From an uncultured Solirubrobacterales bacterium (GTDB lineage Bacteria > Actinomycetota > Thermoleophilia > Solirubrobacterales > 70-9), in NCBI GenBank assembly GCA_963720805.1, contig CAVRGT010000001.1, positions 170,187-234,186 of the forward strand: a DNA stretch of 64,000 nucleotides, in the 5' to 3' direction. The notes beneath the pieces were generated by a model. The model ran no database searches. It saw only the letters and a list, made by a program, of their open reading frames with translations, and was not told where the DNA came from. Position numbers and translations under genes: made by a program. Numbering within the stretch: position 1 is the stretch's first letter; each line of letters opens with the position of its first letter. Positions 3,092-57,410 of the stretch are shown here, piece after piece.

Positions 3092-4470
3092 GCGCGGATC
3101 AGCCCAAGCACCTCGTCGCGCTTGGCCTCCATGTCCTCGCGCGAGACCAGCGACTCGAGGTTGAGGCGCAGCAGCGGCTCGGTGTTGGAGCGCCGCACGT
3201 TGAAGTGCCACTCGGGGTAGTCGACCGAGATCCCGTCGAGCGTGGTCTGCTCGCCGTCGCCGTAGCGCTCGGTGATCTCGGCGATCTTCGCCGCCGGGTC
3301 GGCGACCTCGGAGTTGATCTCGCCGGAGATGAAATAGCGCGAGCGGAACTCGGCCATCAGCTCGCCGAGTGAGCGGCCGTCGACCGAGAGCAGCTCCAGC
3401 ATCAGCAGGGCCGGGATCGTGCCCGAGTCGGCGTTCCAGAAGTCGCGGAAGTAGTAGTGGCCGGAGACCTCGCCGCCGAAGGCGGCACCTTCCTCGCGCA
3501 TCCGCGCCTTGAAGAAGGCGTGCCCGACCCGCGAGAGGTCCGAGCGCCCGCCCTCGGCGGCGACCAGGTCGGGCACGGCCCGGCTCGAGCGCGGGTCGTA
3601 GAGAATCGTCGCGCCGGGGTTCTTGGCCAGCGCCGCGCGGGCGAGTAGGGCGCAGATGAAGTCGCCGTCGCAGAACTCGCCGCTGCCGTCGATGAAGAAG
3701 CAACGGTCGGCGTCGCCGTCCCAGGCGATGCCGAGGTCCGCGCCGGAGCCTCGCACCCGGTCGATGATCATCCGTCGGTTCTCCTCCAGCAGCGGGTTGG
3801 GCTCGTGGTCGGGGAACTCGCCGTTGGGCTCGAAGTACATCTCCTCCAGCTCGAGCGGCAGCTTCTCCAGGATCGGCCCGACCATCGGTCCGCCCATGCC
3901 GTTGCCGCCGTCGACAACCACCTTCATCGGCTTCACCTTGCCCGGGTCGATGAACGACAGGGCGTGGGCGCGGAACTCCTCCCAGACGTCGACCTCCTCC
4001 AGCGAGCCGCCACCCGGGGCGTGCCCGAGCCCGGCCTCGATCTCGGCCTTGACGTCGCCGATCCCGGCGTCACCGGAAAGCGGCAAAGCGCCCTCGCGGA
4101 CCAGCTTCACCCCGGTGTAGGCCTTGGGGTTGTGCGAGGCGGTGACCATCGCGCCGCCGTCGAGCTCACGGGAGCCGACCAGGTGGTAGAGCATCTCGGT
4201 CGCGACCATGCCGGCGTCGATCACGGTGGCGCCCTCGAAGATCAGGCCGTCGCGCAACTCCGCCGCCATCGCCGGCGCGGTCAGGCGCATGTCGCGGCCG
4301 AGCCCGACCCGCAGCTCGCCCGTCGGCTTGCCGCGCAGCTTGCCCAGCACGCGGGCGAAGGCGCGACCGATCGCGTGCGCCGTCGTCTCGTCCATTTCCG
4401 AGCCGTAGAGGCCGCGGATGTCGTAGGCCTTGAAGATTCCCGGCGGGGCCAGGGTCGGCTTCTCGCTCAA
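3088..4470 (-). CDS. Phosphomannomutase/phosphoglucomutase (alpha-D-phosphohexomutase family)
   Basis: Active-site loop TASHNP, metal loop DGDADR and the overall four-domain layout; the 460-aa ORF is intact. Confidence 0.9.
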   Translation of the reverse strand: MSEKPTLAPPGIFKAYDIRGLYGSEMDETTAHAIGRAFARVLGKLRGKPTGELRVGLGRDMRLTAPAMAAELRDGLIFEGATVIDAGMVATEMLYHLVGSRELDGGAMVTASHNPKAYTGVKLVREGALPLSGDAGIGDVKAEIEAGLGHAPGGGSLEEVDVWEEFRAHALSFIDPGKVKPMKVVVDGGNGMGGPMVGPILEKLPLELEEMYFEPNGEFPDHEPNPLLEENRRMIIDRVRGSGADLGIAWDGDADRCFFIDGSGEFCDGDFICALLARAALAKNPGATILYDPRSSRAVPDLVAAEGGRSDLSRVGHAFFKARMREEGAAFGGEVSGHYYFRDFWNADSGTIPALLMLELLSVDGRSLGELMAEFRSRYFISGEINSEVADPAAKIAEITERYGDGEQTTLDGISVDYPEWHFNVRRSNTEPLLRLNLESLVSREDMEAKRDEVLGLIRA

Positions 4471-7837: not shown

Positions 7838-7952
7838 GCGGTCATCCCGGTAGGGGTTTCGCTTAACTTTTTGGGTGGAGACGGAATTGCTGTCGCCTCG
7901 GGGGTGGACGCCCAAAAAGTGCAAGACGCTCCACCCCTACCGGGATGACCGC
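7838..7952. repeat. 115-nt nested palindrome filling the whole intergenic region and including the rfbF start codon
   Basis: The outer 20-nt arms GCGGTCATCCCGGTAGGGGT (7838-7857) and ACCCCTACCGGGATGACCGC (7933-7952) are perfect complements. The inner imperfect arms are CTTAACTTTTTGGGTG and CGCCCAAAAAGTGCAAG. Confidence 0.8.
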
Positions 7953-8733
7953 TAAGCCGCCCGTCGTCATTCTCTGCGGGGGCCGCGGGACCAGGCTGCG
8001 GGAGCGGACGGAGACTGTGCCCAAGGCGCTCGTGGAGATTGGGGCGAAGCCGATCGTCTGGCATGTGATCGGGATCTATGCGGCGCAGGGGTTCGAGCGG
8101 TTTTTGCTTGCGACCGGATATTTGGGCGAGATGGTGGAGGAGTTCGTGGCGGGGGAGAGCTGGGCGGGTGGGGTGGAGGTCGAGTGCGTCGATACGGGGC
8201 TCGATACACCTACGGGGGGGCGAATCGCCAGGCTGGGTGAGCAGCTCGATGGCGGGACGTTTTGCGCCACCTACGCGGACGGGGTCGCCGATATCGACCT
8301 GGATGCGCTGCTCGATTTCCATCGCGCCCAGGACACGCTTGGCACGGTGACCGTCGTGCAGCCGCACCTGCAATGGGGGGTGGCGGAGATTGGCGCAGAC
8401 CACAAGGTCGCGGGCTTCGTCGAGAAGCCGCGCAGCGAGCACTGGATCAACGGGGGGTTCTTCTGCTTCGAGGCGGCTGCGCTGGACTACATCGGCGAGG
8501 ACAGCGTGCTCGAGCGCGAGCCGTTGGAACGCCTTGCCGCCGACAGCCAACTCGGCGCATACCGCCACGAGGGCTTCTGGGATTGCATGGACACCTACAA
8601 GGACGCGGTCGAACTCAACGACATCTGGGCGTCGGGCCATGCCCCTTGGTCTGACCTTCCGAGCGTTCGATCGATTGACCACCGGATCCGTGGGTCAATC
8701 GATCAAACGGCGCTGCCGGCGAGGCGAAGATGA
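7945..8733 (+). CDS. rfbF: Glucose-1-phosphate cytidylyltransferase
   Basis: N-terminus VVILCGGRGTRL...PKALVEIG plus a full-length RfbF-like sequence up to WASGHAPW. The last ~27 aa are encoded by a palindrome (see findings). Confidence 0.85.
   Translation: MTAKPPVVILCGGRGTRLRERTETVPKALVEIGAKPIVWHVIGIYAAQGFERFLLATGYLGEMVEEFVAGESWAGGVEVECVDTGLDTPTGGRIARLGEQLDGGTFCATYADGVADIDLDALLDFHRAQDTLGTVTVVQPHLQWGVAEIGADHKVAGFVEKPRSEHWINGGFFCFEAAALDYIGEDSVLEREPLERLAADSQLGAYRHEGFWDCMDTYKDAVELNDIWASGHAPWSDLPSVRSIDHRIRGSIDQTALPARRR
8665..8708. repeat. 44-nt palindrome inside the 3' tail of rfbF
   Basis: GTTCGATCGATTGACC-ACCGGATCCGTG-GGTCAATCGATCAAAC. The arms are complementary except for one mismatch, and the centre CGGATCCG is itself palindromic. 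Confidence 0.8.
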
Positions 8734-13012: not shown

Positions 13013-13086
13013 CGCGCCCGACAGGATTCGAACCTGTGGCCTCTTCCTCCGGAGGGAAGCGCTCTATCCAGCTGAGCTACGGGCGC
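13013..13086 (-). tRNA. tRNA-Arg (anticodon CCG)
   Basis: The reverse complement is GCGCCCGTAGCTCAGCTGGATAGAGCGCTTCCCTCCGGAGGAAGAGGCCACAGGTTCGAATCCTGTCGGGCGCG. It folds as a cloverleaf with a 7-bp acceptor stem, anticodon stem CTTCC/GGAAG, anticodon loop CTCCGGA and T loop GGTTCGAATCC. CCA is not encoded. Confidence 0.9.
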
Positions 13087-13119: not shown

Positions 13120-14009
13120 TCAGGCCACGTAGTCGACCAGCGCCCTCGAGGGGCGCCCGAGCTGATGGTTGAGCGAGATCGCCGCAGCCAGCGCCAAGAA
13201 GCGGCTGGCGAGGCGAGCATGAATGCCACGAAGTGTGCGGGCGCCGTGGCGCTCGAGGCCGAGGATGTCCTTGGCGGTCCAGTAGATCGACTCGATCCGC
13301 TGGCGCAGTGGGGCGAGGTGGAGTCCGCCCTCGGGCTCATCCTTGCGACGCGGGCGCACCACGGTCGCGCCGAGGGCGGCGGCATCTACTTCGAAATCGG
13401 CACCGGCATAGCCCTTGTCGCCCAGGACGGTGATCGGGCCCGAGCGGTTGACCCGTTCCAGCAGCCGCAGGCAGACCTCGCGCTCACCCTCCTTGGGTGA
13501 GGTCAGCGCCATCGCGCGGGGGGTTCCGTCGGGAGCCATCAGCGTGTGCAGGCGAAAGCCCCAGAAGTAGCGGGAATGCGAGGCGCAGTAGCCGTAGTCG
13601 GCGGCGTCTGCGGTCGCGCCGCCGAGGCTGTTGGCTCCGGCCCGCTTCACCGTCTGGCGCGAGCGGGCGCACTCCACGGGGGTGGAGTCGACGAGCAGCA
13701 GGTCATCGTGCCAGCCGGGGCTCTGGAGGCAAAGGCCGAGATCATCGCCTCGATCGTCTCGGCCAGTCGGTCGCGGCGCTTGTGAAAGCCCGAGCGCTTG
13801 GTCAGGGCAGGGAACAGGTGACCCAGTCGCTTGGGTGCGACCCGAGCAAAGCGGGCATCGGAGTTGATGCCCATGATCGCCTGCGCCACGCAGAGCGTCA
13901 CGACCTCCGCGTCGGTCAGGCTTCGGCGGGCGTTTCCTGGCTTTTCGGGCAGGAGATCGTCAACGGTGCAGAACACAGAGGTGAGCAGCAGGTCGAGGTC
14001 GGCGAGCAT
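13120..14009 (-). pseudogene. IS982-like DDE transposase, split into two frames
   Basis: The N-terminal part is MLADLDLLLTSVFCTVDDLLPEKPGNARRSLTDAEVVTLCVAQ...SGFHKRRDRL. The C-terminal part is ...VECARSRQTVKR...GYCASHSRYFWGFRLH...VLGDKGYAG.... The two parts join only after a 1-nt frame change near 13690-13710 (..FASRAP/GWHDDLLLVDSTP..). Confidence 0.8.
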
Positions 14010-14107
14010 CGTGGCCCCCTTCGGGTCGGCGGTGAGAACTGAGCACCGCCGACTTCGACCCCGCTGCCTATCTCCCCTTGGCACGCCTGGGGCCAACCTC
14101 CCAGTGC

Positions 14108-14156
14108 CGAGTGGTCGATTGACCCCCGCATACGGGGGCAAATCGACCAGTCAGCG
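14108..14156. repeat. Subterminal imperfect palindrome inside the IS, between the transposase start and the terminal repeat
   Basis: CCGAGTGGTCGATTGACCCCCGCATACGGGGGCAAATCGACCAGTCAGCG: a core hairpin CCCCCG-CATA-CGGGGG with extended imperfect arms. A second copy lies at 1091-1140. Confidence 0.7.
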
Positions 14157-16774: not shown

Positions 16775-17727
16775 GGCACCTGCTCTCGATCGAGCAGCTC
16801 TCCAAAGCCGAGATCGAGGCGATCCTCGACCGCGCCGAGAGCTTCGCCGAGGTCGGCCGCCGCGACATCAAGAAGGTGCCGACCCTGCGCGGCCGCACCG
16901 TCGTCACCCTCTTCTACGAGGCCAGCACCCGCACCAGCTCCTCCTTCGAGCTGGCCGCCAAGCGCCTCTCCGCCGACCTCGTCTCGGTCAAGGCGGCCGG
17001 CTCTTCGGTCGACAAGGGCGAGTCGCTGAAGGACACGGTCGCCACCCTCTCCGCCTATGACCCGGCGGCGATCGTGCTGCGCCATCCCTACGCCGGCGCC
17101 GCCCAACTGGTCGCCGGCTGGGCCGACGCTGCGGTGATCAACGCCGGCGACGGCAAGCACGAGCACCCGAGCCAGGCACTGCTCGACGTCTACACCCTGC
17201 GCCGCCGCCTCGGCTCGCTCGAGGGCAAGCGGATCTGGATCGTCGGCGACGTCCTGCACAGCCGCGTTGCCCGCTCCAACCTGATCGCCTTCAAGGCGAT
17301 GGGCGCCGAGCTCACCGTCTGCGGCCCGCCCGCCCTGATTCCACGCGGCCTAGAGCAGCTCGGCTGCGCGGTCGAGCACTCGCTGGAGCGGCTCGGCGAG
17401 GCCGACGTGGTCTACGCGCTGCGGCTGCAGCGCGAGCGGATGAACGAGAGCTTCGTGCCCTCGATCCGCGAGTACGCGGCTCACTTCCAGATCGACTCCC
17501 GCCGCCTCGGCCCGCGGCAGCTGCTGATGCACCCGGGCCCGGTCAACCGCGGGGTCGAGCTCTCCGGCGAGGTGATCGACTCGCCGCAATCGCTGATCGC
17601 CGAACAGGTCGCCTCCGGCCTGGTCGTGCGGATGGCGATCCTCTACGAGCTGCTTGCCGCGGGCGATCAGGAGCCCGCGCCGGCCGCCGGCAACGGTCAC
17701 GCGACCCCGATCGGACAACCGGCGTGA
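16771..17727 (+). CDS. pyrB: Aspartate carbamoyltransferase catalytic subunit
   Basis: STRTSSSFE carbamoyl-phosphate motif and HEHPSQALLD. Overlaps pyrR (GTGA). Confidence 0.95.
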   Translation: MRHLLSIEQLSKAEIEAILDRAESFAEVGRRDIKKVPTLRGRTVVTLFYEASTRTSSSFELAAKRLSADLVSVKAAGSSVDKGESLKDTVATLSAYDPAAIVLRHPYAGAAQLVAGWADAAVINAGDGKHEHPSQALLDVYTLRRRLGSLEGKRIWIVGDVLHSRVARSNLIAFKAMGAELTVCGPPALIPRGLEQLGCAVEHSLERLGEADVVYALRLQRERMNESFVPSIREYAAHFQIDSRRLGPRQLLMHPGPVNRGVELSGEVIDSPQSLIAEQVASGLVVRMAILYELLAAGDQEPAPAAGNGHATPIGQPA

Positions 17728-19070
17728 GCGAGATGCGGCTGCAGATGCGCGCTGGGGAGCGCGCGAGCATCGTCCTGCGCGGCGCCACCGTTCTTGACCC
17801 AGTGGCCGGGATCGACGCGGAGCACGACATCGTCGTCCGCGACGGCGTGATCGCCGAGCTGGCGGCACCCGGCGAGGCCACGGCCGACGGGATCGAGGAG
17901 ATCGATGCCGGCGCCCTGCACGCCTTTCCGGCCTTCTTCGACCCCCACGTCCACCTGCGCACGCCCGGCCAGGAGCACAAGGAGGACATCGAGACCGGCG
18001 CCCGCTCCGCCGCCGCCGGCGGCTACAGCGGCATCCTCGCGATGGCCAATACCGAGCCGCCCGTCTCGACTCCCGCCGACGTCGAGGCGCTGCTCGCCGA
18101 CGCCGGCGTTGCCGCCGCGGTCAAGGTCGGTTTCCTCGCCACCGTGACGCGGGGTATGGAGGGGGAGGAGCTGACCGAGATGGCCTCGCTGCGCGATGTC
18201 GGCGCCGCCGGCTTCAGCGACGACGGCCTGCCGATTCGCAGCGCCCGGATGCTGCGTCGGGCCCTCCAGTACCAGCGCCTCTGCGGCGGCACTATCGCCC
18301 TTCACGAGGAGGACCCGGAGCTCTCCGGAGCGGGCGTGATGCACGAGGGCCCGGTCTCCGCCGTGCTCGGCCTCGAGGGCATCCCCTCGGTCTCGGAGTC
18401 GACGATGATCGCACGCGACGCCGCCCTGGCCGGCTACGAGGGCGGCCGCATCCACGTCCAGCACCTCTCGGCGGCCGAGTCGGTCGAGGCGGTGCGCGCG
18501 GCAAAGGCCGCCGGAGTCCAGATCAGCTGCGAGGCCTCGCCGCACCACCTCTGCCTCACCGACGAGGAGGTGCGCAGCCTCGACCCGCAGCGCTTCAAGA
18601 TGAACCCGCCGCTGCGCAGCGAGGCCGACCGCCAGGCCCTGATCGAGGGGCTGCGCGACGGCACGATCGAGTGCATCGCCACCGACCACGCTCCCCACGC
18701 GGCCGAGGAAAAGGAAGTCCCCTTCGAGCAGGCGGCGATGGGCGTGACCGGCCTGGAGACCGCGTTCGCCGCCCTCTACACCGAGCTCGTCCTGCCGGGC
18801 ACGATCGAGCTCGGCCTGCTGATCGAGCGCCTCGCCGGCGGTGCCGAACCCTTCGAGGTAGAGCGCCCCTCGCTGGCCCCGGGCAGCGAGGCCAACATCG
18901 CCATCTGCGACCTCTCGGCCCGCTGGACGGTCGGCGAGGACGGCTACGAGAGCCGCTCCTCCAACTCCTGGTGCGCCGGCAAAGAGCTGACCGGCCGCGT
19001 CCAAATGACCCTGGCCGCCGGTCAAATCGCCTACCGCCTCCGCTCCTTCTCAATGGGAGTCGCAGCATGA
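17724..19070 (+). CDS. pyrC: Dihydroorotase
   Basis: DPHVHLRTPG metal motif and DHAPH. GTG start overlapping the pyrB stop. Confidence 0.93.
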   Translation: MSEMRLQMRAGERASIVLRGATVLDPVAGIDAEHDIVVRDGVIAELAAPGEATADGIEEIDAGALHAFPAFFDPHVHLRTPGQEHKEDIETGARSAAAGGYSGILAMANTEPPVSTPADVEALLADAGVAAAVKVGFLATVTRGMEGEELTEMASLRDVGAAGFSDDGLPIRSARMLRRALQYQRLCGGTIALHEEDPELSGAGVMHEGPVSAVLGLEGIPSVSESTMIARDAALAGYEGGRIHVQHLSAAESVEAVRAAKAAGVQISCEASPHHLCLTDEEVRSLDPQRFKMNPPLRSEADRQALIEGLRDGTIECIATDHAPHAAEEKEVPFEQAAMGVTGLETAFAALYTELVLPGTIELGLLIERLAGGAEPFEVERPSLAPGSEANIAICDLSARWTVGEDGYESRSSNSWCAGKELTGRVQMTLAAGQIAYRLRSFSMGVAA

Positions 19071-19074
19071 CGAC

Positions 19075-19120
19075 CCTTCCGGTGCGCTTTATGCACCCCC
19101 CAGGTTCAAAAGGCGCACCG
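19075..19120. repeat. Hairpin repeat (CCTTTTG..TGCATAAAG family) between pyrC and carA
   Basis: CCTTCCGGTGCGCTTTATGCAC (19075-19096) is identical to the reverse complement of 34211-34232. The arms CGGTGCGC(-)TTT and AAAGGCGCACCG are complementary with one bulge. Confidence 0.75.
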
Positions 19121-19122
19121 CA

Positions 19123-20233
19123 ATGAACGAGGGATACCTGCTGCTCGCGGACGGGGCTCGGTTCGACGGGATTCCCTGTGGCGCCGAGGGGCCCGTGACC
19201 GGCGAGGTCGTCTTCAACACGGCTATGACCGGCTACCAGGAGTCGGTCACCGATCCCTCTTATGCCGGGCAGATCATCGTCTTCACCTACCCGCTGATCG
19301 GCAACTACGGCGTCTCGGCGGCGGCGATGGAGTCCGACCGCGCCCATGCCCGCGGCGTGGTCATGCGCGATCCAAAGAACGGTGAGGACGTCGCCACCGC
19401 CGAGGGCGGCTGGCTCGACTGGCTCGCCGACTGCGGCGTGCCGGCGATTGGCGGCGTCGACACCCGCGCCGTCGTCCGTCACATCCGCGACCGCGGCGCG
19501 ATGCGCGGCGGCATCTTCCCCGCCGGCACGCCCGAACCCGAAGCACGTGAGCGCGTCGCCGCCGAGCCCTCGATGGACGGCGCCGACCTCGCCCGCACTG
19601 TCACTCCCGCCGAGCCGGTCCGCTTCGAGGGGGAGGGCGGCCCGCACGTGGTCGGCATCGACACCGGGATCAAGCTCAACATCGTGCGCCAGCTGCGCGA
19701 GCGCGGCTGTCGGCTGACGCTGCTGCCCTGCACCTCCACGCCGCAGGAGGTTCTCGCCGAAGAGCCCGACGTCGTCTTCCTCGCCAACGGCCCCGGCGAC
19801 CCGGCGGCGCTCGGCTACGTAGTCGACACCGTGCGCGAGCTGGTCGGCCAGAAGCCCCTCTTCGGCATCTGCCTCGGCCACCAGCTGCTCTGCCGCGCCG
19901 TCGGCCTCGAGACCTTCAAGCTCCCCTTCGGCCACCGCGGCACCAACCACCCGGTCAAGGAGCTGGCCACGGGGCGGATCGACATCACCTCGCAGAACCA
20001 CGGCTTCGCCGTCCAGGGCCCCGGCGGCGAGCCGCGGATCGAGGCCGACGAGCCGGTGCGCTGGGAAACCGACTTCGGCGCCGCCGAGCTCTCCCACCTC
20101 AACCTCTACGACCGCACGGTCGAGGGGCTGGTGCTGAAGGAGGTCGGCGCGGCGACGGTCCAGTACCACCCCGAGGCCGGCCCCGGACCGCATGACGCCC
20201 GTCACCTATTCGATTCCTTCCTGGAGCTGACCA

Positions 20234-20241
<8 letters not shown>
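19123..20241 (+). CDS. carA: Carbamoyl-phosphate synthase small (glutaminase) subunit
   Basis: GICLGHQLL catalytic Cys motif and a full-length CarA-like sequence. Confidence 0.95.
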
Positions 20242-23389
<3,148 letters not shown>

Positions 23390-23393
<4 letters not shown>

Positions 23394-25243
23394 CCGCCCC
23401 CTTCGGGCGGCGGCTCTGTGCGGTTTCCGAGAGCCGTGCGACGGGCGGCTACAGGCTCTTTTCCCTGATCGACACCGAGGGTCCCGAGCCCCGGCCGGGC
23501 CAGTTCTACATGCTCGCCACCGAGAACCACTGGGAGCAGAGCGGGCAGCGCCCCTACCTCCCGCGAGCGCTCTCAGTCGCCGAGACCGGACCGGCGGCGG
23601 GCGGCGTCCGCCTCGACTTCCTGATCGAGGGCATCGGCCCCGGCACCGACCGCCTCTGCGAGCTCGAGCCCGGCGAGAACGTCTGGGTCAACGGCCCCCT
23701 GGGCAACTCGTTCTCAACCCCCCGCGAACTGCATCAACTTCTCCACCCGCTAGATGGAGAAGTTGATGCAGTTCGGCCGAGCGGGGCGGTCTTGGTGGGG
23801 GGTGGGATCGGGATCGCGCCGTTGGCGCTGCTGAGGCGCCGCTTCGCCGCGAAGAACATTCCGACCCGGGTCCTGCTGGGCTTTCGCGACGCAGCTCACT
23901 CTGGCGGCCTCGATGAGCTCTTCTCGTGTTGCGAGGTTCGTCTGGCCAGCGACGACGGCCACTCCGGTCACCACGGCTACGTCACCGACCTGCTCGCCGC
24001 GATACTCGCGGGCGACGACGCATCCAGCGCCGCCGTTTATTCCTGTGGCCCGCCGCAGATGCTCGACGTGGTCGCCGCCACCTGCACCGCGGCCGATGTC
24101 CCCTGTGAGCTCGCCATGGAGTCCCCAATGGCCTGTGGCTACGGCGCCTGCTTCGGCTGTGCAATCCCCAAGCCCGGGGGCGGCTTCATTCGGTTGTGTG
24201 TTGATGGGCCCGTGTTGCGTGGGGGGCCGGCGGGTCCTGTCGCCGCAGGGGACCCCCCACCGCCTGCGGTAGCTAAAGCTTCCTCGGCGGCGGGTCCCCC
24301 TACGGCGCCACCCCCCGGCAGCCACGGATCAGCGGGCCCGTCGACTCCGATCGAGTTTTGCGGGATTGAGTTGGCGCACCCGGTGGTCAACGCGTCCGGG
24401 ACGTTTGACGCGATAGCGGGCCGGCGCGTGTACGGCGACGCCCTGCTGACCGACTTTCCCTTCTCGGCCTTTGTCTCCAAGACGATCACGCCCGAGTCAC
24501 GCACAGGTAACGAGCCGCAGCGGATCTGGGAGACGCCGGCGGGAATGATCAACTCGATCGGGCTGCCGAACAAGGGGCTCGAGGGGTTCCTGGCCGAGGA
24601 CCTGTCACAGCTGGCGGAGCTACCAGTGCCTCTGATCGTCTCCGTCATGGCGACCGCCCACGAGGAGTTCGCGCGACTGGTCAAAGGTGTGGGGGAGAGG
24701 GACGAGGTGACGGCGATCGAGCTCAATGTCTCCTGTCCCAACGTGCACTCAGGACTGATCGTCGGCGAGCAGCCGAGCGAGACCGAGGCCCTGCTCGAAG
24801 CGTTGCGGCCGTTGACCGAGAAGCCGTTGATCGTGAAGCTGACGCCGAACGTGGCGAACCCGGTTGATGTTGCAGTTGCGGCTGAGCAGGGTGGGGCTGA
24901 CGCGGTTTCGCTGATCAACACGCTCAAGGCGAGCGCAATCGATCCAGCAACGGGCCAACCGGGCATCGCGGCCGGGCACGGTGGACTCTCCGGCCCCGCG
25001 GTGCGGCCGGTGGCCGTCGCCCAGGTGCGCGCGGTTGCCGCCGCGGTGAGCATCCCGATCGTCGGTATGGGCGGAATTTCGAGCGGGGCCGATGCGGTCG
25101 AAATGCTCTCCGCCGGGGCAACTCTCGTCGCCGTCGGGACTGAGAACTTCCGCGACCCGCGGGCGGGCAGCCGAGTAGCGGGCGAGATTGCCGGAGCGCT
25201 CCAAGCCGGTCGAAGCAGGGCTCCAATCACCCCCACCGCCTAA
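23390..25243 (+). CDS. pyrD: Dihydroorotate dehydrogenase B: PyrK-like electron-transfer subunit fused in one ORF to the PyrD catalytic subunit
   Basis: Residues 1-~280 have the FAD/NAD-binding fold plus a 2Fe-2S Cys cluster (MACGYGACFGCA...CVDGPV). From ...IEFCGIELAHPVVNASGTF onward the sequence is a class-1 DHODH (GLPNKG, NVSCPN, GLSGPA). The ~35-aa Pro/Ala linker is encoded by a repeat element. Confidence 0.88.
23725..23775. repeat. Perfect 21+9+21 nt palindrome inside the pyrK part (51 nt = 17 codons)
   Basis: CGAACTGCATCAACTTCTCCA-CCCGCTAGA-TGGAGAAGTTGATGCAGTTCG, translated in frame as (R)ELHQLLHPLDGEVDAV(R). Confidence 0.85.
24230..24311 (+). repeat. ~82-bp palindromic repeat, copy 3 (inside the ORF at the pyrK-pyrD junction)
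   Basis: GCGGGTCCTGTCGCCGCAGGGGACCCCCCACCGCCTGCGGTAGCTAAAGCTTCCTCGGCGGCGGGTCCCCCTACGGCGCCAC. It is homologous to 44221-44300 and to the reverse complement of 27871-27952. Confidence 0.85.
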
Positions 25244-33526: not shown

Positions 33527-34180
33527 ATGGCCGCAGCCGAGGCAGGCGCGGTCCTGCTCTGCGACAAGCCGGCGGGCAAGACCTCGCACGACATCGTCCT
33601 TGCCGTACGGCGCGAGCGCCGCGGCGAGAAAGTCGGCCACGCCGGCACCCTCGACCCGTTCGCCACCGGCCTGCTCCTGGTCCTGACCGGTCGGGCGACC
33701 CGCCTGCAGCGCTTCCTGGTCGAGCTGCCGAAGACCTACGTGGCGCGGGCGCGCTTCGGCTGGCGCTCCAGCACCGGCGATCCCGACGGCGAGCTGCGCG
33801 AGACCGGGCGCGTGCCGGACGCCCTCGCGCTGCCGACTGGAACGGTGCGCCAGCGGGTGCCGATGACCTCGGCGGTACGGGTCGGGGGAGAGCGGCTCTA
33901 CCGCAAGGCGCACCGGGGCGAAGTGGTCGAGACCCCCGAACGCGAGGTCGAGGTCTACCGCGCCGAGTTGTTGAGCAGCGACACCGTGGGCGCCTCCTAC
34001 GAGGTCGAGTGCTCCGCCGGCACCTACATCCGCACCCTGGTCGAGACCCTCGATGACGCCTACTGCGCCGAGCTGCGCCGCACCGCGATCGGCCCCTTCC
34101 GGGTCGACGACGCGGGCCATGAGTTCACCCTGAGCGAGGTCGCCGACATGGTCCCCACGGCGGCCGAGGCCCTACGATGA
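33527..34180 (+). CDS. truB: tRNA pseudouridine(55) synthase
   Basis: DKPAGKTSHDIV and the catalytic HAGTLDPFATG motif. Confidence 0.93.
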   Translation: MAAAEAGAVLLCDKPAGKTSHDIVLAVRRERRGEKVGHAGTLDPFATGLLLVLTGRATRLQRFLVELPKTYVARARFGWRSSTGDPDGELRETGRVPDALALPTGTVRQRVPMTSAVRVGGERLYRKAHRGEVVETPEREVEVYRAELLSSDTVGASYEVECSAGTYIRTLVETLDDAYCAELRRTAIGPFRVDDAGHEFTLSEVADMVPTAAEALR

Positions 34181-34182
34181 GG

Positions 34183-34233
34183 CTTCCGGTGGTCCTTTTG
34201 CTCCCTATACGTGCATAAAGCGCACCGGAAGGA
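34183..34233. repeat. Hairpin repeat (CCTTTTG..TGCATAAAG family) between truB and ribF
   Basis: CTTCCGGTGGTCCTTTTGCTCCCTATACGTGCATAAAGCGCACCGGAAGG. The outer arms CTTCCGGTG/CACCGGAAG are complementary, and the 3' 22 nt are identical to the reverse complement of 19075-19096. Confidence 0.75.
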
Positions 34234-34355
34234 TTTGCTCTGAGCATCCAGGTCACCTCACTTCCCGACGCCGAGCCGCGGCCGCGGCATGTCGCGATCG
34301 GCACCTTCGACGGCGTCCACCGTGGTCACCAGGCGGTGATCAAGGGGCAGACACC

Positions 34356-35129
34356 GTGCTCACCTTCGATCCTCACCCGCTGGAGATCATCCACCCGGCG
34401 GCGCTGCCGAAGCTGATCATGCCCTTCGGGGTCAAGCGCGACGTGATCGAGGGGCTTGGCGTCGACGAGCTCGTCGTCATCCCCTTTGACCAGCAGTTCG
34501 CCCAGCGCAGCGCCGAGGAATTCATCGAGGACGTGCTGATCGCCAAGCTCGGCGCCGAGCAGGTCTCGGTCGGCGAGAACTTCCGCTTCGGCGCCAAGGC
34601 CAAAGGCGATCCCGCCATGCTGGCCGGCCGCGAGGAGTTTGAGACGCGGGTGGTGCCGCTGGTCGAAACCGACGGCGAGACGATCTCCTCGACCCGGATT
34701 CGCGCCCTCGTCGCCGCCGGCGACATGGAGGGCGCCCGCCACTGCCTCGGCGCCCCCTTCATGGTCGAGGGCGAGGTCGTCAGCGGCGACCAGCGCGGCC
34801 GCAAGCTTGGCTTCCCAACCGCCAACATCGTGCCCGATGATCGCCTCGCGATTCCGGGCCACGGCGTCTACGCGGCCTTTGCCAACGGCATCCCGGCTGC
34901 GGTCAACGTCGGCGTGCGGCCGACCTTCGAGAGCGGCCGCGGGGTGCTGATCGAGACCTACCTGATCGACTTCGACGGCGATCTCTACGGCACCGAGCTG
35001 CGGGTCGCCTTCGTCGAGCGCCTGCGCGGCGAGAAGCGCTTCGCCAGTGTCGAGGAGCTGATCGCCCAGATGCGGATCGATGTCGAGGACGCGAAGCGCG
35101 TCTGTGCTAGCTTCACCGGCGCGCCATGA
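34356..35129 (+). CDS. ribF: Riboflavin kinase / FMN adenylyltransferase RibF; 5' part disrupted (the HxGH motif lies upstream in another frame)
   Basis: ORF 34356.. begins at VLTFDPHP and contains GENFRFG and the kinase motif [10 protein letters not shown]. The expected N-terminus (VAIGTFDGVHRGHQAVIKG) is encoded at ~34288-34344 in a different frame. Confidence 0.85.
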
Positions 35130-36881: not shown

Positions 36882-37337
36882 GTGAGCGAGCTGACCAGCG
36901 CCGCGGTCCCGCCCGTCGGGCCCGCGGACCACAGGCGCGGCTCCGGCCCCGAGCTGATCGTCTACGCCGACCTCGGTTGCCCGCACTGCGCCTCGGCCTG
37001 GCTGGAGATCGGCGAGCGCGAGGCGACGATCGTCTTTCGCCACTTTCCGGTCGCCAGCAAGCACCCGCGCGCGCCGGCCCTGCATGCTGCCGCCGAGGCC
37101 GCCGGCCTCCAGGGCCATTTCTTCGAGATGGTGGACTCGCTTTACGGCGACCGCGGCCACGTCGACGATCCGCACATCTGGCAACGAGCCGAGCGCCTCG
37201 AGCTCGATCTCGATCGCTTCGAGGCCGACCGCCGCTCCGAGGCCGTCCTCACCCGCGTACGCAGGGACTTCGAGTCCGGCATCCGCGCCGGCGTCACCAG
37301 CACCCCAGCCCTCTTCCCACCCCCCACGACACGCTGA
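36882..37337 (+). CDS. DsbA-family thiol:disulfide oxidoreductase
   Basis: Thioredoxin-fold CPHC active site (YADLGCPHCASAW) and C-terminal GVTSTPALF. Confidence 0.8.
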   Translation: MSELTSAAVPPVGPADHRRGSGPELIVYADLGCPHCASAWLEIGEREATIVFRHFPVASKHPRAPALHAAAEAAGLQGHFFEMVDSLYGDRGHVDDPHIWQRAERLELDLDRFEADRRSEAVLTRVRRDFESGIRAGVTSTPALFPPPTTR

Positions 37338-37385
37338 CTGTGGCTTTGACCGCGCTATAGGGGGGTCAAAGCCACAGTCAGCGTG
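37330..37385. repeat. Perfect 22+12+22 nt palindrome bounded by CGCTGACT/AGTCAGCG; it supplies the stop codon of the dsbA-like gene
   Basis: CACGCTGACTGTGGCTTTGACC-GCGCTATAGGGG-GGTCAAAGCCACAGTCAGCGTG. The TGA at 37335-37337 lies within the left arm. Confidence 0.85.
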
Positions 37386-44463: not shown

Positions 44464-45918
44464 CTAAAAGGTTCTGGCGGGTTGCTGGGCGGGTTGGAGG
44501 GGGAGGCGGACGCGGAATTGGGCGCCGCCTGAGGCGGATTCGCCTACTTCGACGGTGCCGTTGTGGGAGGTGGCTACGGCGCGGACTATGGAGAGGCCGA
44601 GGCCGCTGCCGGGGCCGACGGCGGTGTCGGCGGGGCCCTCGCCGCGGACGAAGCGGTCGAAGATCTGCTCGCGTAGGCGCGGGGGGATGCCGGGGCCGTC
44701 GTCGGCGACCTCGACCACGGCCTCCTCGCCGAGGCGGCGGACGTGCAGTTCGATCCGGGCGCCGAGTGGCGTGTGGCGGGAGGCGTTGTCGAGCAGGTTG
44801 AGGACCATGCGGTGCAGCTCGTCGGCGTTGCCCGTCACCGGTAGCGCGTGCTGGTTGTCGATGTCAAGTTCGCGATCGCCCATCAGGGGCGCCAGCTCGA
44901 CGGCGACGTTGCCGGCAATCTCGGCCAGATCGCAGGGGACGTGTTTTCCGGCCCGGCCGGCGTCGGCGCGGGCCAGCAGCAGCAGGTCCCCGACCAGGCG
45001 GCTCATCCGCTTCGAGGAGCGCAGGGCGGAGTCGACCATGGCGCGGTCTTCGTCGTGATTCGGCGCTCGCAGAGAGGCCTGCAGAAGCTCGAGGTTGGCG
45101 AGCACGCTGGTCAGCGGCGTGCGCAGCTCGTGCGAAGCGTCGGCGACGAACTCGCGCTGTTTTTTCATCGCCGCCTCGCGCTCGGTGCGGGCGGCGTCGA
45201 GCGAGCGCAGCATCTGCTCCAGCGTGCGCGCGAGCTCGCCGACCTCGTCGTCGACCTTCGGATCCGGCATGTGACGCGACGGGTCCCCGGTTGCGGCGAT
45301 CTGGCGGGCGGTCACGGTCAGGGCCGAGATAGGCCGCATCGCCCTGGAGGCGACGGCGACGCCGCCGAGGCTGGCGAGCAGGGTACCGCCGAAGATTCCC
45401 GCGGCGATGAAGAGCCAGAGCCGGTCGACCGTCGAGTCGACGTGGGCGATGTTGCGGCCGTACTGAATGAACCCTGTGGTCGCGCCCGATTCACCGCTGG
45501 TCCGGGTGGTCGCGACCCGCATCTGGCCGTAGTCGGCGAGGCCGAGAGAGGACGAGGACCCCATTGGCTCGGCACCCGTGCTCTCTTCGATCAGGTTGCC
45601 TTCGGCGTCGAATACACGCGCCGAGGCGCCGTCGGGGCGGACGAAGTCATCGAGCTTCGGGCCGCGAAATTGGACGCCGAGAAGGGTCCGGAAGACCCGG
45701 CTTTCCGCCGCCAGCGTCTGGCCGGCGCTGCTGACCTGACGGTTGAAGTCGTCGCGGATGCGGCTGGTTGCCACCTGGCCGATCACGGCGCCGAAAACGA
45801 GCAGGATGATGAGCGTCAGCCCGGCGGAGACCCCGGCGAGGCGCCAGCGGACCGGCCAGCTGCTCGGTCGCAGCCGGTTGGGCCAGCGAGCGGCGAGCTT
45901 GCGAGCGAACCGCCTCAT
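44464..45918 (-). CDS. Two-component sensor histidine kinase (two TM segments, HAMP, HisKA, HATPase_c)
   Basis: H-box SHELRTPLTS, N-box LLDNASRHT, and G-boxes DDGPGI and GSGLGLSIV. Confidence 0.9.
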   Translation of the reverse strand: MRRFARKLAARWPNRLRPSSWPVRWRLAGVSAGLTLIILLVFGAVIGQVATSRIRDDFNRQVSSAGQTLAAESRVFRTLLGVQFRGPKLDDFVRPDGASARVFDAEGNLIEESTGAEPMGSSSSLGLADYGQMRVATTRTSGESGATTGFIQYGRNIAHVDSTVDRLWLFIAAGIFGGTLLASLGGVAVASRAMRPISALTVTARQIAATGDPSRHMPDPKVDDEVGELARTLEQMLRSLDAARTEREAAMKKQREFVADASHELRTPLTSVLANLELLQASLRAPNHDEDRAMVDSALRSSKRMSRLVGDLLLLARADAGRAGKHVPCDLAEIAGNVAVELAPLMGDRELDIDNQHALPVTGNADELHRMVLNLLDNASRHTPLGARIELHVRRLGEEAVVEVADDGPGIPPRLREQIFDRFVRGEGPADTAVGPGSGLGLSIVRAVATSHNGTVEVGESASGGAQFRVRLPLQPAQQPARTF

Positions 45919-46652
45919 TACTCCTTGAGGACGTAGCCGGCGCCGCGTTTGGTGTGCAGGAGACGGGGCTCGCCGCCGGCCTCGAGCTTGCGGCGCAGGT
46001 TGGAGATGAAGACGTCGATCGTGTTCGTCGCCGCGGTCGGGTCGTAGCCCCAGACGTCGTCGAGCAGGCGCTCGCGCGAGACGACGAGGCGCTCGTTGCG
46101 CATCAGGTACTCGAGCAGCTCGAACTCGCGGTTTGTCAGCTCCAACTCGCGCTCGCCGCGACTGACTTCGCGAGTGTCAGGGTTGAGCGCGAGGTCGCCG
46201 ACTTCCAACGAGGCGGCGCCGCGCGGCGGGCGGCGGCGCAGCAGCGCGCGGATCCGCGCCAGCAGCTCCTGACGCTCGAAGGGCTTGACCAGGTAGTCGT
46301 CGGCGCCGCTGTCGAGACCGCTGACCCGGTCCTCGGTCTCGGCCCGGGCGGTCAGCATCAGGATCGGCACGTCTCCTTCGGCCCGCAGGCGCCGGCAGAC
46401 CTCGACCCCGTCAAGGCGGGGGAGGCCGAGATCGAGGACGACGAGGTCGGGGACGAAGCCCGTGGCCACGTCAAGCGCCTCGACTCCGTCGGCGCTGGTC
46501 TTCACCTCGTAGCCCTCCTGGCGCAGCGAGCGGCGCAGGACGTCGGCGATCTCGGCGTCGTCCTCGACCACCAGCACGCGGCCGGTGGCAATTTCGGGCT
46601 CGGCGTTCAGCACAAAAGCGATGTTAGAGCCAAGCCTCAGGTTCAAGCCCAA
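45918..46652 (-). CDS. OmpR-family response regulator (start codon uncertain)
   Basis: Receiver domain (VLVVEDD...DLVVLDLGLP...MLTA) plus winged-helix domain (LTNREFELLEYL...GAGYVL). Its stop overlaps the kinase ATG. Confidence 0.9.
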   Translation of the reverse strand: MGLNLRLGSNIAFVLNAEPEIATGRVLVVEDDAEIADVLRRSLRQEGYEVKTSADGVEALDVATGFVPDLVVLDLGLPRLDGVEVCRRLRAEGDVPILMLTARAETEDRVSGLDSGADDYLVKPFERQELLARIRALLRRRPPRGAASLEVGDLALNPDTREVSRGERELELTNREFELLEYLMRNERLVVSRERLLDDVWGYDPTAATNTIDVFISNLRRKLEAGGEPRLLHTKRGAGYVLKE

Positions 46653-46674
46653 CTTTTACCCCCGCCTTATCTGC

Positions 46675-46720
46675 TGACTTCCTCTTTTTGGGCGCATAGG
46701 GGATACAAAAGAGGAAGTCA
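46675..46720. repeat. Hairpin repeat (CTGACTTCC-armed) in the divergent regulator/ftsK intergenic region
   Basis: TGACTTCCTCTTTT-TGGGCGCATAGGGGATAC-AAAAGAGGAAGTCA with perfect 14-nt arms. It is homologous to the reverse complement of 56485-56532. Confidence 0.8.
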
Positions 46721-46766
46721 CCGGCTGGGCGAAGGGGTGGGCAGGCCGACGTCGAAGGGGGGGCTC

Positions 46767-55759: not shown

Positions 55760-56488
55760 GTGCACGTGATCGCAATCTTCGGTCCCACCGGTGTGGGGAA
55801 GACCGGCGTCGCGATCGAGCTCGCTGAGTTGCTGCGGGCGCGGGAGGAGGATCCCGTGGCGATCTCCTGCGATGCGCTGCAGGTCTACGAAGGTCTCTCG
55901 GTCCTGACCGGCGTGGCCTCCGCCGAGGAGCAGGCTCGCCTCGAGCACAGGCTTGTCGGGTTCGTGCCGGTGACCGAGCGGTTCAACGTCGGCGATTACA
56001 TGCCGCTCGCGCACGCCGAGATAGATCGGGCACTGGAGGCCGGCCGGCGGCCGATTGTCGTCGGCGGGACCGGCCTCTACCTGCGAGCAGCGCTGGGCGA
56101 GCTTTCCCTCGTCAAGGCGCCGGCGGAATCGAAGGACTCGGAGCTGTGGTCGCCCGAGACGCGGCATCCGACGGCGATCTTTGGGCTCGATATGGAGCGC
56201 GAGCAGCTCTACGAGCGGATCGACGCGCGGACGGAGGCGATCGTTGCGGGCGGGGCGCGCGCGGAGGTCGAAAGGGCGGAGGCGGCAGGGCCGTCGCGGA
56301 CCGCGCGCAAGGCACTCGGCTTCGACGAGGTGCTCAGCGGCGACCTGGCGCGGATGCAGCAGCGCTCGCGCAACTACGCCCGCCGTCAGTTGACCTGGAT
56401 GCGCAAGGTTCCCAACCTCCGCTGGATCGACCGCGCCGAGCGCACCGACGCGGAGGTGGCCGCCGAGATCGCCACCCACCTGCGCTGA
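55760..56488 (+). CDS. miaA: tRNA dimethylallyltransferase MiaA (compact, 242 aa)
   Basis: P-loop GPTGVGKT, VGGTGLY and RNYARRQLTWMR motifs. Confidence 0.88.
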   Translation: MHVIAIFGPTGVGKTGVAIELAELLRAREEDPVAISCDALQVYEGLSVLTGVASAEEQARLEHRLVGFVPVTERFNVGDYMPLAHAEIDRALEAGRRPIVVGGTGLYLRAALGELSLVKAPAESKDSELWSPETRHPTAIFGLDMEREQLYERIDARTEAIVAGGARAEVERAEAAGPSRTARKALGFDEVLSGDLARMQQRSRNYARRQLTWMRKVPNLRWIDRAERTDAEVAAEIATHLR

Positions 56489-56532
56489 CTTCCTCTTTAT
56501 GCATGCCATTGCGCCCAAAAGGGGGAAGTCAG
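56485..56532. repeat. Hairpin repeat (CTGACTTCC-armed) that supplies the miaA stop codon
   Basis: CTGACTTCCTCTTT-ATGCATGCCATTGCGCCC-AAAAGGGGGAAGTCAG. The miaA TGA (56486-56488) lies in the left arm. Flanked by CG..CG, giving CGCTGACT / AGTCAGCG. Confidence 0.8.
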
Positions 56533-56563
56533 CGACGGGGGAATGGGTGAATAGGCTTGCCCG

Positions 56564-57410
56564 ATGAGATTTGAGAAGTGGCAGGCGCTGGGGAACGACT
56601 ACTTGATCGTCGAGGCGGAGGGGCTTCCGTGGGAGTTGACGCAGGGGCGTGTCCGGCTGCTCTGCGATCCGCATTTCGGGGTCGGATCGGACGGCGTGCT
56701 GCTGCTCTCGCGCAGCGAGGACCCGGCATACGTTGCCTCGCTGCGGATCTTCAACCCCGACGGCTCCGAGGCCGAGCTCTCCGGCAACGGCGCGCGGGAG
56801 GCGATTCTCTACCTGCGCCGGCACGGCTGGACAGCGGCGGACACCTTCTCGATCCTCACCGCCGCCGGGCCGGTGACGCCAACTATTACTTCGGAGCGCA
56901 TCTGCTCGGTGGCGATGGGGCGCGCAAGCACGGCGTCAAAGGATTTTCCATCGGGGCCGGGTGACGGTCGCGGATTAATCGAGGTCGCCGGTCGCGAGAT
57001 GGGCTTTCCAGCACGTCTCGATCGGCAACCCGCAGTGCGCGATCGTGGTCGGCGGGGAGCTGGAGAGCCTCGATCTGGGCGCGATCGGTCCCGGGATCGA
57101 AGGCCACGACCTCTTCCCCAACCGCACCAACGTCTCCTTCCTGCGTATCGACGGCAGCCAGGTCAGGGCGCGGATTTTTGAGCGCGGCGTGGGGGAGACG
57201 CTCTCCTCGGGGACAGGGGCCAGTGGCGCGGCGGTTACGGCCTTTCTCGACGGCGCCCCGAGCCCGATCACGGTTGAGCTCGACGGTGGTGAGCTGGTGG
57301 TCGAGATCTCCGATCAGCTCGACGTCACCCTGAGCGGCTGGGCCGAGCAGATCTGCGCCGGAGAGCTCTCGGGCGAGCTGCTGAGTGCACTTGCCGAGCT
57401 GGACGGCTAG
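56564..57410 (+). CDS. dapF: Diaminopimelate-epimerase-family protein; one apparent 1-nt insertion; both catalytic Cys positions are Ser
   Basis: KWQALGNDYLIV, FNPDGSEAELSGNGARE and, after a frame change at ~56999 (GAG-A-TGG), FQHVSIGNPQCAIVV...FERGVGETLSSGTGASGAAV. Confidence 0.8.

Follow-up and report, generated by a model that had tools for sequence, protein, structure and literature searches.

The 64,000-nucleotide (nt) stretch of contig CAVRGT010000001.1 from an uncultured Solirubrobacterales bacterium (hereafter the window) contains four short palindromic elements, which we term E1 to E4. E1 and E2 are copies of a repeat family of the Solirubrobacterales, an imperfect palindrome of about 50 nt, and a sister subfamily includes E3 and E4. 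The repeat is a MIRU- or REP-like palindromic element that has been tolerated or co-opted as a translational-coupling hairpin, and is not a new class of RNA. As the best explanation we propose, with modest confidence, an insertion-derived repeat whose hairpin would lock translation of the downstream gene and whose small relay open reading frame (ORF) would couple that translation to the upstream gene. An earlier note on this DNA had described a hairpin repeat family with covarying arms, placed inside operons. The family is genuine, forms hairpins and lies directly behind stop codons; its framing as a covarying functional RNA proved only partly right.

Four palindromic elements in the window

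E1 (19075..19122, forward strand; covariance-model score 66 bits) lies in what we call orientation A between pyrC (17724-19070, +) and carA (19123-20241, +). It reads CTTCCGGTGCG CTTTATGCAC N10 CAAAAGG CGCACCG, begins 5 nt past the pyrC TGA (19068-19070) and ends 2 nt ahead of the carA ATG (19123), the carA start cutting short its right arm; orthologous copies are found in the related stretches L014, L015 and L019. E2 (34183..34233, reverse strand; 67 bits) occupies the truB/ribF junction (truB 33527-34180 and ribF 34240-35129, both +, the latter with a 1-nt frameshift near 34335 in the window), where it is transcribed in orientation B. Read in orientation A it has the layout of E1, but its right arm is ACCACCGGAAG. 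It begins 2 nt past the truB TGA (34178-34180), its 3' arm CACCGGAAGGA includes a Shine-Dalgarno-like GGAAGG, and L065, L066 and L067 retain the element at this junction. The position close behind stop codons that the earlier note gave for both elements is confirmed, and NCBIfam backs its identification of the four flanking genes.

The genes around the two sister elements were likewise assigned by NCBIfam. E3 (56485..56532, forward strand) lies behind miaA (55760-56488), whose stop TGA (56486-56488) falls within the left arm of the element, and ahead of dapF (from 56564). Its arms are CTGACTTCC/GGAAGTCAG and its layout in orientation A is CTGACTTCC-T-CTTTATGCA-N12-CAAAAGG-G-GGAAGTCAG. E4 (46674..46722, reverse strand), a variant of the E3 type, stands in the divergent region between a response-regulator gene (45918-46652, -) and ftsK (from 46767). 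It is written CTGACTTCC TCTTTTT...CAAAAGA GGAAGTCA and, in orientation A, GTGACTTCC-T-CTTTTGTA-N13-CAAAAAG-A-GGAAGTCAG. Placement inside operons, as initially described, thus holds for E1 at pyrC/carA and E2 at truB/ribF, but E4 sits outside any operon.

When read in one orientation, E1, E2 and E3 have the core CTTTATGCA-N11/12-CAAAAGG in common, from which E4 deviates (CTTTTGTA...CAAAAAG). The shared core had been part of the initial description and stands for these three elements, but the 9-mer core by itself is not significant inside the window (3 observed vs 2 expected). By comparison, the 22-mer CCTTCCGGTGCGCTTTATGCAC occurs at 19075-19096 (+) and again at 34211-34232 (-) with 0 mismatches, as first reported, and recurred in none of 100 shuffles even when 3 mismatches were permitted. 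The significance of the repeat lies in the 22-mer and in the family outside the window, not in the 9-mer core. The two arm types are not independent: CTTCC/GGAAG is common to both, and they are separated by a symmetric GGTGCG/CGCACC insert plus a CTGA/TCAG extension. All four elements fold as RNA hairpins of -20 to -32 kcal/mol. Against shuffled controls, E1 (-23.3 kcal/mol) has z = -4.3, E3 (-31.6 kcal/mol) z = -5.6 and E4 z = -3.6, and the fold of E2 is weaker in its transcribed orientation (z = -1.3).

A repeat family in uncultured Solirubrobacterales

The pattern CTTCC-N0-10-CTTTATGCA-N8-16-CAAAAGG was scanned against one genome per species, 185,579 species in total, and matched 64 loci. 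Twenty-seven of these lie on G+C-rich contigs of uncultured Solirubrobacterales metagenome-assembled genomes (MAGs), two of which carry the labels Chloroflexota or Actinomycetota. All 27 have an equal 38-nt spacing, a GGTGCG that the pattern does not force and the matching right arm CGCACCGGAAG. The remaining 37 loci are in low-G+C genomes, are devoid of the arms and look like chance matches. Proteins of the window are 94-96% identical to their counterparts in two of the Solirubrobacterales MAGs, which places the window in this lineage. Copies of the pyrC/carA and truB/ribF type hardly differ in the arms CTTCCGGTGCG...CGCACCGGAAG, whereas their apex varies.

A covariance model, as had been proposed beforehand, was trained on 29 copies. 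It recovered 3 extra copies in 216 kb of flanks, detected E3 weakly (E = 0.034) and caught the truB/ribF copies of three relatives, which the exact pattern had missed because of core variants such as GTACATAAAG. Altogether the family amounts to about 40 copies in at least 16 genomes and at about 24 distinct junctions, with 3-7 strict copies per near-complete genome and a rough density, estimated with the covariance model, of one copy per 100 kb of unbiased flank. Each observed copy stands alone, with no variable-number tandem repeat (VNTR) arrays among them. The sister type is also a family, because five G+C-rich metagenome contigs bear the E3/E4-type arms GCTGACTTCC...GGAAGTCAGC with a different apex, CGCGGATACCGCG. 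Viral contigs searched for the family pattern gave no match, and our literature searches returned no description of such a repeat for Solirubrobacterales.

Filled and empty orthologous sites

Insertion polymorphism is seen for both subtypes. The pstC/pstA junction is filled in L035, L089 and L090 and empty in L091 and L092, where the two genes are 2 nt apart. E3 is missing in L068, the closest relative compared at that site (RecA 96% identical), where the alignment shows a 51-nt gap, and E4 is missing in L068, L069 and L070. This comparison of filled with empty orthologous sites indicates that the elements arose by insertion. A REP/MITE-like mobile repeat (MITE, miniature inverted-repeat transposable element), which had been one of several options put forward in the earlier note, fits best with these sites and with the spread over about 24 junctions in at least 16 genomes.

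Terminal inverted repeats are present in both types (CTTCCGGTGCG/CGCACCGGAAG and GCTGACTTCC/GGAAGTCAGC). The RTGA found on both flanks resembled a target-site duplication, but it appears to represent the native stop and start, since the empty pstC/pstA sites carry both, 2 nt apart. Searching 420 kb of related DNA for a parent insertion sequence with the same ends revealed no solitary or distant arm pairs. The gene tables of the stretches taken from relatives list no RAYT (IS200/IS605-like) genes. A GTAG or CGTC tag was found in 0 of 34 copies, the flanks of which read CC/CG/GC/AG...CT/GG.

Conservation, orientation and placement

In the 29-copy alignment, 90.8% of the cells are paired. Sequence conservation is confined to the stems, and the apex of 9-10 nt varies. 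The covariation score of this alignment is 0.034 vs a shuffled mean of 0.035, a score at least this high arises in 293 of 500 shuffles, and only 1 pair displays a double change. Covariation of the arms is thus at shuffle level, and the conserved structure with variable sequence proposed at the outset is not borne out, as it is their sequence that the stems retain. When orthologs are compared, the four pyrC/carA copies are identical at 35/35 positions of stem and core in all 6 pairs, and the four truB/ribF copies at 38-41 of 41. Third positions of codons in the flanking genes reach only 59-86% identity against this 93-100%, and the apex changes at a roughly neutral rate. By this measure the elements are under purifying selection. 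The left half-site CTTCCGGTGCGCTTTATGCAC is far less variable than the right arm, with 1 vs about 15 changes at unforced positions.

Copies start 1-12 nt past a stop codon, at about 12 junctions in orientation B relative to transcription and at about 11 in orientation A. The majority context consists of co-directional junctions (pyrC/carA, truB/ribF, pstC/pstA and about 10 more). In a second context, represented by L006 and L028, the 3' arm GGAAGGGGG is located 5 nt upstream of the next start, that of a gene whose product begins VFVSLEGIDGSGK and which we take to be thymidylate kinase. In the third, the element fills the whole spacer between convergent stop codons (L018/L049 and L029). One such convergent junction can be compared across four stretches: E-type elements are present at L018 4014-4066 and L049 5016-5068, and the orthologous positions in L006 (about 3190-3240, -) and L028 (about 190-240, -) have the unrelated hairpins GGTGTGGCGACTTTCCCCGTCATATAGACGGGTAACTCGCCACACC and TGGCGATTTAAGCGTCTCTATGACGCATAAGTCGCCA.

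The elements form stable hairpins in either orientation (means of -30 and -27 kcal/mol), and GGAAG is base-paired in every copy. In the mRNA the hairpin is 20-22 bp long. Its 5' arm (CUUCC...) starts 1-5 nt past the upstream stop, and its 3' arm ends in a Shine-Dalgarno-like GGAAGG 6 or 9 nt before the downstream start.

The elements are unlikely to be a dedicated cis-regulatory RNA, given the near-equal use of opposite transcription orientations (about 12 vs 11 sites) and the lack of an Rfam family. At gathering thresholds, Rfam reported only a SAM riboswitch (RF00162, 6135-6253, +, 90 bits) and a tRNA gene (13013-13086, -) in the whole window and nothing at the elements, and permissive scans of E1 and E2 returned only sub-threshold miRNA-hairpin noise. 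Consensus scans found no terminator-like match at E1 or E2 and no promoter match at the elements, and no T-run follows E1, E2, E3 or E4. Two specific candidates were rejected: TTTTG-N11-TGCATAAAG fails as a -35/-10 pair on spacing (10-12 nt), and a PyrR-type pyr attenuator is ruled out because the element is also found at truB/ribF, at pstC/pstA, upstream of tmk and elsewhere.

Relay mini-ORFs and the start of ribF

We define a relay mini-ORF as a small ORF whose start overlaps the upstream stop and whose stop overlaps the downstream start. Among the intercistronic copies in orientation B (12 sites), 18 of 19 contain such an ORF, of 21-24 codons, in which an ATG or GTG overlaps the upstream TGA (RTGA) and the final TGA overlaps a downstream ATG, GTG or CTG. 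In orientation A, relay ORFs of 17-21 codons are present in 4/4 pyrC/carA copies and in L008b. The distances between the overlapping codons are 49, 52, 58, 61 and 67 nt, all 1 mod 3 and differing by multiples of 3. An upstream RTGA accompanies 19/19 copies vs 19 of the 106 gene ends in these genomes (18%), where the commonest stop context is CTGA (31/106). A functional peptide was considered and rejected: one orientation encodes a peptide with no relation to that of the other (MSFRCAFC...VHKAHRK vs M..LPVRFMH..GSKGAP) and the apical codons are not conserved. It is the frame that matters and not the product, and the relay peptide itself is probably irrelevant.

At E1, the relay mini-ORF (19067..19126, +; 19 codons) runs from the ATGA at 19067-19070, over the pyrC stop, to the ATGA at 19123-19126, over the carA ATG; the same arrangement occurs in L014, L015 (with 6 additional nt, in frame) and L019. 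At E2, the mini-ORF (34177..34218, +) starts at the ATGA over the truB stop and ends after 13 codons at a TAA in the core. This early stop is due to an extra G, the window reading ATGAGGCTTCC where three relatives read ATGAGCTTCC and have a 21-codon relay ORF ending at the ribF CTGA. The extra G is likely an assembly error, as the window is also frameshifted in ribF, carB and dapF. At E3, two consecutive relay ORFs connect miaA to dapF: a 21-codon ORF (56485..56550, +) from CTG 56485 to TGA 56548-56550, followed by a 6-codon ORF (56547..56567, +) from GTG 56547 to TGA 56565-56567, the latter overlapping the dapF ATG (56564). In L068, where the miaA/dapF spacer (13922-13952) is free of the element, a single ORF of 10 codons likewise spans it and overlaps each neighbour through a GTGA, from which relay ORFs seem to be a habit of these genomes and may be a general feature of their intercistronic spacers.

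The relay frame bears directly on ribF. In four genomes, no ATG, GTG or TTG lies between the in-frame stop of the element and the essential HxGH motif; the only start candidate is the CTG that overlaps the relay stop. In the window this putative CTG start (34240..34242, +) is 6 nt past GGAAGGA, and in the relatives it overlaps the relay stop (CTGA). The window ORF that begins at 34356 is short of about 50 N-terminal positions of the NCBIfam profile. A CTG-only start coupled to the relay ORF would explain why gene callers begin ribF about 32 codons late in three related MAGs.

Model and alternative explanations

As the filled and empty sites show, the family spread as a small non-autonomous insertion element, the E3/E4 type until recently, and settles in the short gap that separates a stop from the following start, or where two genes converge. 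In the model that we favour, the hairpin in the mRNA would mask the downstream Shine-Dalgarno sequence and ribosome-binding site. The 5' arm would be melted by a ribosome that halts 1-5 nt ahead of it, as in the RNA-unfolding model of translational coupling (PMC12548453). Ribosomes that had finished the upstream gene would reinitiate at the RTGA start overlapping its stop, translate the relay mini-ORF of 19-24 codons through the hairpin, terminate at the TGA overlapping the downstream start and reinitiate there. Through this relay reinitiation, downstream translation would be kept and strictly coupled to that of the upstream gene. For copies that lie between convergent genes, a role as 3'-end structure is probable.

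Several observations weigh against this model. Translation of the relay mini-ORF is read from the sequence, only about 5 independent indel events lie behind the preservation of frame, and preservation across sites is partly inherited, since the inserted unit is of fixed length. Neither relay nor hairpin explains the near-invariance of the asymmetric core and of CTTCCGGTGCGCTTTATGCAC in both orientations, or why the stems show almost no G-U or compensatory drift. The orientation-A copies of L006/L028, L033 and L017 are without an overlapping relay ORF, and E4 sits in a promoter or 5' untranslated region. The E2 relay ORF of the window is broken by one extra base, though the window has other frameshifts of the indel type. 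Finally, neither a cognate transposase nor a target-site duplication turned up in the DNA examined.

The strongest competitor, to which we give limited but real weight, is a purely selfish MITE- or REP-like palindrome, the relay ORFs and the post-stop position being the survivorship of insertions that spared coupling. Such a repeat would be expected to show what is seen here, that is filled and empty sites for both subtypes and many junctions in both orientations, and it would agree with the unrelated palindromes kept in frame in carB, in pyrK and at other junctions, as well as with relay ORFs in element-free spacers such as L068 miaA/dapF. However, a functionless remnant should decay uniformly, whereas stem and core are retained at 93-100% vs 59-86% at third positions while the apex drifts, and in four genomes ribF relies on the CTG at the relay stop. 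Rather improbable, in our judgement, is an RNA processing or stabiliser hairpin, i.e. a site for RNase III (or one guiding RNase E/J) or a barrier to 3' exonucleases that would segment operon mRNA and give its parts different stabilities, in the manner of REP, ERIC, Correia and T7 intercistronic sites. Stem length and internal mismatches would suit RNase III-type substrates. The position directly past stops, including those of convergent genes (L018/L049, L029), is as expected for 3'-end hairpins. The different hairpins of L006 and L028 at the same convergent junction suggest that any stable hairpin is wanted there, and ERIC and REP elements provide precedents (PMC3184786). Yet cleavage would cut the relay ORF and the CTG-dependent ribF start, a generic barrier needs no conserved sequence, and there is no U-tract.

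Two further proposals draw on the sequence of the element itself, and it is the invariance of the core and left half-site in both transcription orientations that keeps them in consideration. In one, which we regard as very improbable, the element is a DNA-level site, its asymmetric half-site being bound, as duplex or as an extruded single-stranded hairpin, by a transposase or RAYT-like enzyme, a recombinase or a nucleoid protein, with any effects on RNA secondary. Equal conservation in either transcription orientation, a left half CTTCCGGTGCGCTTTATGCAC with 1 change vs about 15 in the right arm at unforced positions, and stems without compensatory drift would all fit a site of this kind. But no candidate protein gene adjoins any copy, each genome has few copies (3-7 strict ones), the GTAG/CGTC tag (PMC3733652) is lacking, and no longer element with these arms occurs in the 420 kb examined. 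The tight tie to stop and start codons and to frame is, moreover, a feature of translation. In the other, improbable though less markedly so, the repeat is a domesticated, sequence-specific relay cistron: a trans-acting factor, either a protein or oppositely transcribed copies, would open or lock the hairpin at the invariant 21-nt CTTCCGGTGCGCTTTATGCAC and so co-regulate the downstream cistrons of a dozen operons with housekeeping roles, among them pyr, ribF, pst and tmk. Some genes, such as ribF through its CTG start, would have come to need it.

Comparison with known repeats

Judged by analogy, the closest known kind is the mycobacterial MIRU. MIRUs are 40-100 bp long, number 40-50 per genome and lie, co-transcribed, inside operons (Supply et al. 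1997, via PMC12548453, PMC3184786); their ORFs are coupled at -4 nt to the neighbouring genes, and filled and empty sites and internal inverted repeats are reported (PMC12548453, PMC3184786). On these accounts, the E elements resemble them as actinobacterial intergenic repeats inside operons, with a small ORF overlapping the flanking stop and start, filled next to empty sites as a sign of insertion, and imperfect inverted repeats both internally and at their ends. Nevertheless, the host order differs, and the sequences are not known to be related. E elements are single units whereas MIRUs form tandem VNTR arrays; they are strong, near-perfect hairpins with a relay ORF in either orientation and two different peptides; and the RTGA at their flanks appears to be the native stop/start and not a duplication.

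Like REP and BIME sequences, the E elements are short imperfect palindromes past coding regions, between unidirectional or convergent genes, and are transcribed. REPs too are proposed mRNA stabilisers, and some copies lie inside genes. REPs measure 20-40 bp, usually with more than 100 copies per genome (PMC2817692), and they bear an unpaired GTAG or CGTC tag (PMC3733652); in contrast, E elements are about 50 nt long, have few to tens of copies and lack the tag, and no RAYT is seen in the relatives' gene tables. The ERIC and Correia (NEMIS/CREE) repeats are also imperfect palindromes that are co-transcribed with operons, conserved across species and found in either orientation, but they are 100-160 bp long, are associated with TA duplications and belong to Proteobacteria. 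We know of no relay ORF with overlaps at both ends described for them. As functional analogues, they influence how stable the adjoining mRNA is or how it is processed (PMC3184786). Rickettsia palindromic elements are similarly tolerated in translated sequence as the frame is kept (PMC3184786), and carB and pyrK of the window hold in-frame palindromes of this sort. They differ in being 100-150 bp long and incorporated in the host protein, whereas the E elements mostly form a separate mini-cistron.

Other palindromes and quality of the window

The junction at 8650-8733 is orthologous to an E-type site in L044 but has instead a palindrome at 8664-8709 (CGTTCGATCGATTGACCACCGGA/TCCGTGGGTCAATCGATCAAACG), edged by the E-like arm remnants CCTTCCGAGCG...GCGCTGCCGGCGAGG. 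Reading through this palindrome without a change of frame, the upstream ORF 7945-8733 stops at an ATGA shared with the following gene (8730). It looks as if a nested palindrome has taken the place of the hairpin core.

A second hairpin family, with the core TTGACC-N12-GGTCAA, is found upstream of pnp in the window (37330-37385), in L065 (12754-12803) and in L067 (12785-12834), where wholly different self-complementary outer arms occupy the orthologous site. The core occurs 2 times in the window vs 0.01 expected, and also in L011, L037, L065 and L067; a variant lies at 14106-14155. The pattern of a conserved core with changed arms is clearer in this family than in the E family. The adjacent segment 37400-37480 is almost invariant among three genomes, has a compensatory change in its stem (GGCCGT...GCGGCC vs GGCCAC...GTGGCC) and has no Rfam match above noise. 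It is probably an autoregulatory pnp leader.

Two perfect hairpins lie inside pyrimidine genes. The one at 23324-23372 (20 bp) is an in-frame insertion in the 3' end of carB, where the window reads ...EIHGL...GAKQAR* and L065 ...EIHGLERAKQPR*. The other, at 23725-23775 (21 bp), is a 36-nt (12-codon) in-frame insertion in pyrK that the window shares with L066 and L067 and that L065 lacks; its left arm begins in native codons (CGAACTG). The carB gene is split in the window by a frameshift (ORFs 20234-23182 and 22926-23393), and pyrK and pyrD form one 617-aa ORF, probably through another indel. The 1-nt frameshift of ribF, relative to three relatives, maps to 34335-34356, and dapF (56564-57181) is truncated to 205 aa vs 283-285 aa. 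This indel pattern is typical of long-read MAG assemblies, so single-base details of the window, such as the extra G in E2, need care.

Significance of the family

The element opens no new class of biology, and the function proposed for it derives from comparative sequence data. As a relay mini-cistron repeat in an uncultured lineage, it is a tidy and well-supported example. The family comes from an abundant uncultured soil lineage and is undescribed in the literature searched. It also causes systematic annotation errors, such as the ribF of three related MAGs, which is annotated about 32 codons short. Each element constitutes a compact portable module that combines hairpin, Shine-Dalgarno sequence, spacer and in-frame stop for use in either orientation, and would offer natural material for the study of termination-reinitiation and of hairpin-locked ribosome-binding sites. 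The stop/start-overlapping mini-cistron is not a mycobacterial oddity but a recurrent survival route for small insertions in tightly coupled operons.

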